The notes under the pieces are model-generated. The model made no database searches. It was not told the origin of the DNA and saw only the letters and a list, made by a program, of their open reading frames with translations. From the NCBI GenBank assembly GCA_951406725.2, contig OX597817.1:166842001-166906000 (forward strand): 64,000 nucleotides of DNA, in the 5' to 3' direction. The first letter of the stretch is position 1; each line of letters begins with the position of its first letter. Made by a program: the position numbers and the translations under genes. Shown piece after piece: positions 12,851 to 63,679 of the stretch. Source of the stretch: Octopus vulgaris. Lineage: Eukaryota.

Positions 12851-13716
12851 AAAGTAAACGTATATTGACTTTTATGTATATATGTGTGAGTGTGAGCTAC
12901 AAGTGGGTATTTTTGTAAGTAAAATTACATTTAATTCATTAATAGCGAAACAATTGTCCCAAAATAATCTGTATTTTTGTTATTTTTTATTTGCCCTGTT
13001 CGTGTGAGCTAACAATCGTACTGACTTTCATGGGAAACATGTATTTTTGTGGTTGAAACCTTTTGGATTTGCTGCGAGTGCTAGAATGAGCCACATAGTG
13101 ACCATTCTCTTATATTTATTATTATTATATTATATATATATATATATACTTGTATTTATATGTATATAAATAGTGCATCTGGAAAGCGAGATAATGATAG
13201 TAGTGACGAGGTGTCAGGGCGTACATAAGAGTACATGACAGTAGGAAAATGTGGGGACAGAATACAAGAGTTTGCAAGACTGTGGGGTGAATGAGAAATA
13301 GTTTAATATGAGAATACGAATGAATTAGCGAACGGTGAACAATTGTGGAGAGATGTTTGAATGAAAAACACTATAATGTGAAGTGAGCAATATTTCGAGT
13401 TAAAAATCCTTTATCAAGAAAAACTGGAAATTATAATTAGCTCCGATCCAAACCAGTATTGCATGGTAAAAGAGTGGGATTCGCGATATGTGCAGATTAG
13501 TAATGTTAAATAGGATAATTAGGTTTTTAATTTTTGTAATAAAATAACGTCTTAAATTTTTGTAATAAAATAACGTTTTTAGTTTCTCAAATTTCCTGTA
13601 ATCTGCTACCTGGCTTTGGTCATGATATACTGGTTACGGCATTTTAAAAATGTTTTTTTTAATGAAACGAGGCTTATGTCAACCAGCTCCTTTAATGACT
13701 GTGTAGTCTGTGTACT

Positions 13717-35986: not shown

Positions 35987-36903
35987 AAAAGTATAATACA
36001 TATGTACTCTACGAAAAGTACAGATAATTCTTCAGTCTGATCTAAAGTAAGGCGGCGAACTGGCAGAATCGTTAGTACACCGGACAAAATGCTTAGCGGC
36101 TTTTCGTCAGCTTTTAAAGTAATTTCCAGTTGATCACTAGGATCGATGTAATCAACTTTACCCCTCCCCCGAAATTGCCGGCCTTGTATCAAAATTTGAA
36201 ATCATTATGAAACTTGACATAAGGCGGCGCGCTGGTAGAATCGGTAGCGCTCCGGGAAAAATGTTTCGCATGTCTTTTGCCTTCGGAGTTCAAATCCCAC
36301 AAAGGTCAAAGTTACCGTTCATCCTGGCGGGATCGATAATATAAATATCAGTTGAACACTGAAGTCGATGTAATCGACTAACTCCAACCCCTAAAATTGC
36401 TGGCCTTGAGCCAAAATTTGAAACCGTTTTGACTACACACGAAAACAAACCTTAATACACACTCACACATAGTACTTGGCTCTTATCTCAAAACAACCAG
36501 TTCTCTCCATTTATGTAAATTCTTGAGTAGACGATGGAGGGTGAACCATTCGTCTCTACTCGATTCCCAGAAACATAAGAAAAAAATTTGCTTTTGGATT
36601 TGGTTTGCAAGATTCTTTATATGAGATCGTGTGTTGAAGCATATTCTGTTGTGTCTGGGGAAAGTCATTTTCTTTTTGTGCCTTATAACGTAACACACTC
36701 ACCGGTAAAATTTCCACTTATTTCAATAGTCAAGACTATTGAAAAGGTTGCAAGACGCAACGAAAATTTTAGGAAAATAAAAATAAGAAATAAGTGGAAA
36801 TTTTACCGGTGAGTGTGTTTATATTATAAGGCACAAAAAGAAAATGACTCTCCCCAGAAGAATTATCTGTACTTTTCGTAGAGTGCATATGTATTATACT
36901 TTT
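35987..36903. repeat. Nested inverted repeats (outer 35987-36032/36858-36903; inner 36654-36723/36787-36858) enclosing two SINE C copies (36049-36208, 36221-36427)
   Basis: Direct reverse-complement matches. Confidence 0.8.
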
Positions 36904-62185: not shown

Positions 62186-62192
<7 letters not shown>

Positions 62193-62640
62193 AAATATTA
62201 TTCATGTGGTTATACAATTAAGGGCTCCTAAATAAAGATGCCGAGTGCTGGGAACACAGAGATTTGAAAAGTTAAGATCTGCTAGTAGTCGGGTTTAACA
62301 TATAGCCCCACATCGCTGCAGACCTCGATTAAATTCAGGCGACTCGCTGATGAAGCCAGCCTTAGCAAACATATTCTGTGTTTTGCTAGAAAGAAGCAGA
62401 AACCGCGGTACGAGTTGTTAAAGTTATCGGTAAACGTTTTTGATTTTCACTCTCGATAAATTCATCCCCTTTTTGTGTTCCCAGCACTCGGCATCTTTAT
62501 TTAGGAGCCCTTAATTGTATAACCACATGAATAATATTTTTCTATATGAATAATATTTTTCTATATGAATAATATTTTTGTCTTATGACTAATTCGTCTT
62601 TTGTGCTGGGCACCTGGTAGTAAATAATATTACTACCCTT
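62186..62640 (+). mobile_element. Hammerhead-bearing non-coding element with perfect ~72-bp inverted arms (62186-62258 / 62475-62547)
   Basis: Exact reverse-complement arms; 20-bp tandem triplication at ~62528-62579; terminal hairpin ggtagtaa..ttactacc-ctt. Confidence 0.75.
62338..62419 (+). ncRNA. Type-I hammerhead ribozyme
   Basis: Stem I ggcgactcg/cgagttgtt, CTGATGA, stem II with tagcaaa/tttgcta hairpin, GAAA, palindrome ACCGCGGT, GUA site. Confidence 0.7.
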
Positions 62641-62750
62641 AACGGCCATAATAGGCCATTCACCCACTAGAAATAACAGCCAAAGCTTCAACCGCAAATA
62701 AAAGTTAATTCTGTAAACCAGGAGAAAATTTTAAAAACATTTACCCTGTA

Positions 62751-62857
62751 ATTTCTTATACGATATACCGTTTCATCTGCTGATTAATGGTAAACTAACC
62801 TGATTAAATTAAATCAAGCCAATCTTCCACAGGCCCTCAGATTCCTCAGTAAGAAAT
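62751..62857 (-). ncRNA. Type-I hammerhead ribozyme (inverted copy)
   Basis: Reverse complement of 63311-63417. Confidence 0.8.
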
Positions 62858-63310
62858 AGCCCAAGTCGGAACAGATATTTTCACGAGGCATTTCCGACCT
62901 TGCCAAGTTTATATCTGACCTAAAATTTTCAAATCGTCGCACTCGCGCCAAATTTATCGGCAGCAAATAAATATAAGCCGTCGATTCCATTACGGAATTA
63001 ACCAGAAAATTCATAATTAATCAATATAGGGTGGCAAAAAAAAAAATTTTGTAGAATTCTTTTGCCACCAGCGGCCTAGTAGGAAAAAATTAAATAGTCA
63101 TAGACCATTTTTAAGTTCAACATCATTTTTTTGCCACCCTATATTGATTCATTATGAATTTTCTGGTTAATTCCGTAATGGAATCGACGGCTTATATTTA
63201 TTTGCTGCCGATAAATTTGGCGCGAGTGCGACGATTTGAAAATTTTAGGTCAGATATAAACTTGGCAAGGTCGGAAATGCCTCGTGAAAATATCTGTTCC
63301 GACTTGGGCT

Positions 63311-63417
63311 ATTTCTTACTGAGGAATCTGAGGGCCTGTGGAAGATTGGCTTGATTTAATTTAATCAGGTTAGTTTACCATTAATCAGCAGATGAAACGG
63401 TATATCGTATAAGAAAT
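63311..63417 (+). ncRNA. Type-I hammerhead ribozyme, intact
   Basis: Stem I atttctta/taagaaat (8 bp), CTGAGGA, stem II atctg/cagat, GAAA, stem III acggt-at-atcgt, predicted cleavage after GUA at 63409. Confidence 0.82.
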
Positions 63418-63642
63418 TACAGGGTAAATGTTTTTAAAATTTTCTCCTGGTTTACAGAATTAACTTTTATTTGCGGTTGAAGCTTTGGCTGTTATTTCTA
63501 GTGGGTGAATGGCCTATTATGGCCGTTCCTTGATTGTTTGATGTTGAACTTAAAAATGGTCTATGACTATTTAATTTTTTCCTACTAGGCCGCTGGTGGC
63601 AAAAGAATTCTACAAAATTTTTTTTTTGCCACCCTATATTGA

Positions 63643-63679
<37 letters not shown>

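Follow-up and report, generated by a model that had tools for sequence, protein, structure and literature searches.

The window, a stretch of 64,000 nucleotides of the Octopus vulgaris genome, carries close to its right end an insertion made of two head-to-head arms of a tandem repeat, here called F1, which abuts a copy of a second family, F2 (Table 1). The segment 62641-63042 is the reverse complement of 63126-63527 (401 of 402 positions identical) and 63013-63125 that of 63539-63650 (112 of 113 identical, with a single gap in a T run), in agreement with a sequence-only reading of the stretch that had described a nearly identical inverted copy reading from 63539 round to 63527. That reading had also given a unit of 495 bp, which is indeed the spacing of the direct repeats in the window copy but not the usual F1 unit of ~492 nt, because the T runs of the window copy hold three extra T. 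It had expected no credible open reading frame, and no stop-to-stop frame of the unit exceeds 68 aa. The window as a whole is extremely rich in microsatellites (positions 1-64000, 147 tandem-repeat rows); among them are a GAT/GGT array of 1.5 kb at 45403-46932 and a CA-rich one of 1.3 kb at 53820-55088.

Table 1 Features of the F1 insertion and its immediate surroundings, in window coordinates.
Feature	Position	Strand	Remarks
F2 neighbour insertion, 445-nt unit	62190..62640	+	own inverted arm 62190-62258; atypical hammerhead 62341-62416
Likely deletion point	62640..62641	.	inferred from a comparison with intact ends of F1 and F2
Arm A	62641..63125	-	inverted, 5'-truncated; 3' end stops 11 nt before fixed site A
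Identical hammerhead, arm A	62751..62857	-	predicted cut at 62759
Head-to-head junction of the arms (63125/63126)	63118..63133	.	position differs from locus to locus
Arm B	63126..63650	+	1.06 units; 5'-truncated; 3' end is fixed site B
Predicted type I hammerhead, arm B	63311..63417	+	core 63319-63325 and 63394-63397; 68-nt stem II region
Self-complementary helix III of the arm B hammerhead	63397-63408	+	predicted cut after 63409
Splice-donor-like site	63421..63429	+	14 nt after the predicted ribozyme cut
Predicted structured domain	63498..63633	+	stem around site A, followed by a hairpin immediately before site B
Fixed 3' end A	63538..63541	+	end of 34 of 74 parsed arms; predicted ribozyme cut 129 nt upstream
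Tail between ends A and B, ~110 nt	63539..63650	+	in one arm only; B is the end of 38 of 74 parsed arms
Right (TA)n target site	63651..63674	.	

A search of the octopus's own genome (2.8 Gb, rich in microsatellites) with the F1 unit returned 1006 first-look candidates, so the element is not single-copy, a possibility that had been raised against it. Scoring of the best 40 of these 1006 candidates yielded 183 matches, with identities of 92-100% among those listed. From 150 listed rows, 39 F1 loci were drawn with 10 kb each; being the best-scoring matches, they form a sample biased to young tandem copies. The 92 full units they contain differ from the majority sequence by 0.76% on average, with a period of 491-495 nt and arrays of up to 6.5 units. 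The GC content is 0.36, and the arrays are pure runs of units with no LTR-type arrangement. A subfamily, F1b, exists at 91% identity.

A descriptor of the type I hammerhead matched at exactly two places in the 64 kb, 63319-63409 on the forward and 62849-62759 on the reverse strand, which confirms the claim of one such motif in each arm; Rfam returned no hammerhead match at its gathering or E-value thresholds, probably on account of the long stem II. The predicted stems I, II and III have 8, 5+ and 5 bp, and the pair closing stem II is A-U versus the usual G-C. Any loose match to the descriptor occurred in 1 of 20000 shuffled units and an equally good one in 0 of 20000. Fold z-scores were -3.1 for the ribozyme region and -3.5 for the unit folded as a circle (vs 40 shuffles). 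Across 143-154 aligned segments the fixed core positions vary little or not at all, the core being kept in 142-143 of 143 and in 151 of 151 segments, while N7, which the established hammerhead rules leave free, is occupied by each of the four bases (A19, T13, G5, C2 in 39 loci). Helix III is self-complementary in five different sequences, those of F1, F1b and three further families described below (F2, F3 and F4), and the hammerhead stems of F1b, F2, F3 and F4 differ in sequence from those of F1. Such self-complementary helices permit dimeric cleavage, according to the available text of PMC4209133. On this sequence evidence the F1 ribozyme has a good chance of being active. The F2 hammerhead, in which stem II closes with a mismatch, may be inactive. 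A variant stem I seen in contigs of sequencing runs was considered as covariation and dropped, with 0 exact genomic matches; it may reflect editing or the allele of another individual.

The insertions share a fixed anatomy. Two head-to-head arms lie within (TA)n in 31 of the 39 loci, and a single arm in the other 8. Site A (63538) is the 3' end of 34 of the 74 parsed arms and site B (63650) that of 38; the two arms with other ends are arm A of the window copy and, at another locus (L066), a parsing fragment. Since (TA)n adjoins 71 of the 74 parsed 3' ends, and does so on either side of two-armed copies, it represents the target and not a tail, which corrects the earlier statement that the element ends in (TA)n. 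Sites A and B are both distinct from the predicted ribozyme cut site, A lying 129 and B ~240 nt downstream of it. Arm lengths range from 71 to 3187 nt, with inner ends scattered over the unit (the near-unit length of the window's arm A is one value within this wide range), and the head-to-head junctions often carry a few overlapping or filler bases. At one locus (L060:4332-4341) the junction falls exactly inside the palindromic helix III of the hammerhead.

The two ends are also paired. The 32 head-to-head pairs comprise 28 of type A+B, 1 A+A, 1 B+B and 2 unclassified, and 28 of 30 classifiable pairs depart strongly from independent ends (binomial P 4e-7). A second query that does not span the unit junction found 16 loci, 5 of them new; the 4 new loci that were fetched comprise three A+B pairs and one single arm. 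Both exceptions, A+A and B+B, have their flanks in inverted duplication, over 1.38 kb at 99.8% (L033) and 158 bp at 100% (L059), and the sole other case among 30 loci checked (L041) is a flank match of 110 bp that is not adjacent to the element on both sides. These two insertions (L033:2418-7596 and L059:4432-5624), whose duplicated flanks include 1.4 kb of a LINE, together with palindromic host DNA seen likewise in several F3 flanks, raise the idea that hammerhead elements may generate local palindromes.

This anatomy bears on two trivial or foreign origins of the inversion. An assembly fold-back had been considered, and no contig among those listed bridges 63125/63126. However, the arms are permuted with unequal ends, 31 loci have distinct junctions and unique flanks, and a DNA-like sequencing run holds many strand-change joints of F1, so that we regard an artefact as hardly conceivable. 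Alternatively, a LINE protein (by twin priming) or a DNA-transposon mechanism could have made the inverted structure, as LINE-type RT ORFs are common in the flanks and L1 twin priming gives 5' inversions. Against this, the insertions have no poly(A) and no identical terminal inverted repeats, a fixed tail sets their two ends apart, the match between the inner end of arm B and the outer end of arm A that L1 twin priming predicts is missing, and autonomous Penelope-like elements (PLEs) of the same genome have the same ends; a LINE or transposon origin is therefore highly improbable.

The 11 nt said to be absent from the inverted copy are a real gap, which lies at the outer end of arm A, where other F1 copies continue to 63538. 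Arm A of the window has no (TA)n beside its outer end, and the F2 copy at 62190-62640 is also 11 nt short, of F2's own B end. A comparison of the sequences suggests that a later deletion at 62640/62641 likely took the F2 end, the intervening (TA)n and the end of arm A, and the gap is thus no evidence for a circular template. The earlier reading had derived a circular or multimeric template from the permuted arms and the gap. Two fixed 3' start sites, random 5' truncation and the likely local deletion are enough to produce both, which by themselves prove no circle; other evidence, given below, does make a circle likely.

An inverted 5'-truncated copy, a tail often present at one end and (TA)n targets have been published as a PLE signature (available text of PMC8557442), and for PLEs two internal RT starts were found to define the tail, with both strands nicked and extended (available text of PMC11167929). 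The insertion anatomy of F1 matches this signature. The A+B rule also holds in other families. F2, another young tandem family with hammerheads, has a unit of 445 nt, 1018 candidates, the same two-armed (TA)n anatomy and two alternative A ends ~20 nt apart; 8 of its 10 two-armed loci are A+B. F3 (L090-L114; ~470-500 nt, 70-77% like F1, 1801 candidates, canonical hammerhead) has the same A and B ends and follows the rule in 6 of 7 legible two-armed loci. A fourth family, F4 (L158:7278-8990; ~535 nt), has a canonical hammerhead and a tail in common with F1, and a fragment of it lies in the window at 12894-13120 (93%). Folding predicts a stem around site A and a hairpin before site B in F1, F2 and F3, retained with compensatory changes between F1 and F3, and this domain is likely the recognition element of an RT-endonuclease. 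The shared polymorphic sites show no preference for unpaired positions (P 0.41), in a weak test whose pairing probabilities disagree with the minimum-energy fold.

Two young autonomous families, PLE1 (intact ORF of 713 aa, 24261 first-look protein candidates) and PLE2 (intact ORF of ~1310 aa, 8032 first-look protein candidates), carry hammerhead-like motifs and also form A+B two-armed insertions (L149, L154, L157, L206, L208, L201-L202), ending in (TA)n at two sites that are 71 and 57 nt apart, respectively. Their proteins found no useful match naming them in Pfam or PDB and resemble Atlas proteins carrying the GIY-YIG, RVT_1 and HTH_animal families, which serve as leads only; besides these look-alikes and the anatomy, their assignment to PLEs draws partly on motifs that we take to be diagnostic. 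The PLE1 repeat (L145:3960-9411) is ~3 kb long and largely microsatellite. Nearly all printed 3' flanks of PLE1 have, embedded in the repeat, a small two-armed piece with F1-like ends, and a shared end motif first taken for the end of PLE1 proved to belong to this piece. PLE2 (L199-L208) has many intact ORFs of 1310-1312 aa, whose N-terminal part is rich in Asn, and its hammerhead-like motif has a variant core. A short fragment in the window, at 36597-36668 (-), matches codons 1-24 of the PLE2 ORF and represents a pLTR end.

We sought pLTR homology to F1 in four PLE-like groups sampled from the genome. The repeats of PLE1 and PLE2 align to the F1 unit no better than shuffles, and neither an older PLE-like group nor a degenerate third RT type showed pLTR homology to F1. 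A match of 11/12 nt before site A between F3 and PLE2 was rejected as homology, being no better than shuffles. The driver of F1 is probably a PLE, and no autonomous partner with a homologous pLTR was found among the four groups sampled. Alternatively, an ordinary autonomous PLE could have left solo pseudo-LTRs or 3' fragments that unequal crossover expanded locally as minisatellites, a route proposed for vertebrate retrozymes (available text of preprint 10.64898/2026.07.22.740005); ORF-linked copies could moreover escape a survey in which the best 40 candidates per search were scored. Such an origin is very unlikely: in 44 loci no arm is preceded on its 5' side by a PLE-type ORF, each of the dispersed loci ends precisely at A or B and carries a new haplotype, and the two inverted arms are multi-unit and equally young. 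By the same absence of a 5' ORF in these 44 loci, F1 is not the ordinary pLTR that the earlier reading had named as an alternative. At one locus (L052) a PLE2 ORF lies convergent to an F1 copy across (TA)n. Overall, it is very likely that F1 is a young, non-coding tandem hammerhead family, both a non-LTR retrozyme and a non-autonomous PLE, which upholds the earlier view of a recently active, multi-copy, hammerhead-bearing element of the retrozyme/Penelope kind. We are as confident that its mobilisation was of the PLE type, and the fuller statement, that F1 is a non-LTR retrozyme family likely mobilised in trans by a Penelope-like RT/GIY-YIG protein, is probable.

Expression was assessed in assembled contigs of runs that are only guessed to be RNA. 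In three such runs, A>G plus T>C places outnumbered C>T plus G>A places by 80:17, 53:10 and 31:11, compared to 28:24 in the DNA-like run, and in run X2, 13 of 15 checked A>G sites had no G in 125-140 genomic segments. No A>G excess was seen within genomic F1 copies. The excess fits A-to-I editing of double-stranded RNA from two-armed loci, although strain alleles can mimic it. Three contigs exit the unit at 63423/63424, at the splice-donor-like site that is also present in F2 and F3. One contig joins donor 63423 to a unique genomic exon behind a polypyrimidine-AG acceptor; this host exon (G000:C28:12995564-12995685) lies 20-22 kb downstream of same-strand family copies (L212:5971-7878). The second of two tested splice partners had 0 matches in the genome, and among the joints listed, none takes out the 34 nt from the donor to the next AG. 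A contig that wraps round the unit is compatible with a circle or a tandem, and contig ends near 63409 were disregarded as evidence because contigs cannot show RNA ends.

The sequence of the arms indicates how many templates each insertion had. Divergence is 0.33% within an arm, 0.57% between the arms of a locus and 1.4% between loci; excluding a locus with two insertions (L063), it is 0.25% within and 0.27% between arms. There are 15 haplotypes in 38 loci. In 15 of 16 informative loci the opposite arms agree at every shared polymorphic site, versus 64 of 704 between loci, in a test that omitted L063 and an unpaired parse (L037); 13 less informative pairs also matched. Both arms therefore very probably derive from the same RNA molecule or the same source locus.

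Given one haplotype per insertion and arms of up to 6.5 units, a circle is the simplest template, and we lean slightly towards it over a linear multimer. Circles have already been proposed as templates of more-than-unit copies (available text of PMC4209133). The same PLE machinery may instead have copied a linear multimer from a homogeneous master array, with the hammerhead only trimming the RNA. A homogeneous source array would also give one haplotype per insertion, spliced read-through RNA appears to exist, and ribozyme cleavage is dispensable for insertion in vitro (available text of PMC11167929). There is also a weak clustering of 5' ends near the cut site (q276-295; 8 of 72 vs 2.9 expected, P 0.009 as a prior test and 0.58 as a scan), which hints at some linear templates. 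However, arms of up to 6.5 units, random 5' truncation and 15 uniform-array haplotypes would demand that many long masters be regenerated. Of 93 locus-private variants, 86 occur in only some units, as expected for later mutation or sequencing error, and 7 in all units; two private variants each span both arms of one locus (L047 and L066), which also speaks against the linear multimer. We regard the linear template as a possible but doubtful explanation.

The class to which F1 belongs is known, and the link between retrozymes and PLEs has already been argued in a 2026 preprint. Metazoan non-LTR retrozymes (Cervera and de la Pena, 2020; PMC7229834, main text) likewise consist of non-coding tandem units with a type I hammerhead and low GC (36% in F1), form dimers to multimers and have a palindromic helix III. 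Their units are of ~150-450 nt versus 492 nt in F1, and circles have been demonstrated for them, those of F1 being putative. That main text nowhere uses "inverted", "microsatellite" or "octopus", and the two-armed anatomy with fixed ends is absent from it. The preprint (10.64898/2026.07.22.740005; Li, Clavereau and Pollet, 2026), in its available text, concludes that retrozymes are non-autonomous PLE derivatives, the same class conclusion as ours, and the F1 unit falls within its range of 51-972 bp. Its evidence is co-occurrence and pLTR homology, mainly in vertebrates, whereas ours is insertion anatomy, with no homologous pLTR found for F1 in the four PLE-like groups. It also reports that 1 of 9 tested retrozyme dimers cleaved.

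Similar to F1, EN+ PLEs show partial tandems, an inverted 5'-truncated copy, a tail at one end and (TA)n targets (Craig et al., 2021, PMC8557442, and Frangieh et al., 2024, PMC11167929, available text), as well as two internal RT start sites downstream of the hammerhead (PMC11167929, likewise). F1 differs from them in having no ORF and a tail of ~110 nt versus 30-40, and its pairing of a tailed with an untailed arm is near-strict, whereas PAc in vitro showed no strand difference in start site (the same text of PMC11167929). MRC1, a non-autonomous Chlamys element, is algal, and its 3' end resembles its autonomous family; its clade is said to lack canonical hammerheads, unlike F1 (PMC8557442, available text). 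An autonomous PLE with ordinary pLTRs has an RT/GIY-YIG ORF between its repeats, compared to a 5' ORF in 0 of 44 F1 loci. Plant LTR retrozymes have a type III hammerhead within LTRs and a 4-bp target duplication, in contrast to the type I hammerhead and tandem arrays of F1. In searches of the literature we found no description of F1 or of A+B pairing in retrozymes, and in the available text of an octopus repeat survey (PMC13282606) "ribozyme" has 0 occurrences. For the near-strict pairing of one A with one B end, the long tail and the one-haplotype rule in a retrozyme, no earlier report was found in these searches.

The A+B pairing, the tail and the single haplotype point to an asymmetric two-primer reaction on one RNA. 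We propose that F1 arrays would be transcribed in the hammerhead sense and that the hammerheads, probably as dimers via the palindromic helix III, would cut the multimers to ~492-nt monomers, which would likely circularise. A dimeric PLE protein would then bind the structured domain around A and B and nick both (TA)n strands; on one RNA, the first nick would prime cDNA at A and the second at B. The cDNAs would extend over 0.1-6.5 units, and repair would join their ends head to head. In its most specific form, an asymmetric PLE RT-endonuclease dimer on a single ~492-nt circle, with one subunit starting at A and the other at B, both rolling round and their products being joined head to head, the proposal is put forward tentatively.

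F1 insertions bear on the origin of the inverted and tailed structures of PLEs and on the copying of retrozyme arrays from circles, and both questions are directly testable with the many near-identical, haplotype-tagged insertions and an easily transcribed substrate of ~490 nt. The intact PLE ORFs of 713 aa and ~1310 aa in the same genome are candidate drivers, and the contig spliced into a host exon suggests an effect on host transcripts. If true, the asymmetric dimer reaction would offer one explanation for PLE tails, inverted copies and retrozyme arrays, and it would be recorded in at least four parallel retrozyme families that may also donate splice sites to host genes and undergo A-to-I editing.
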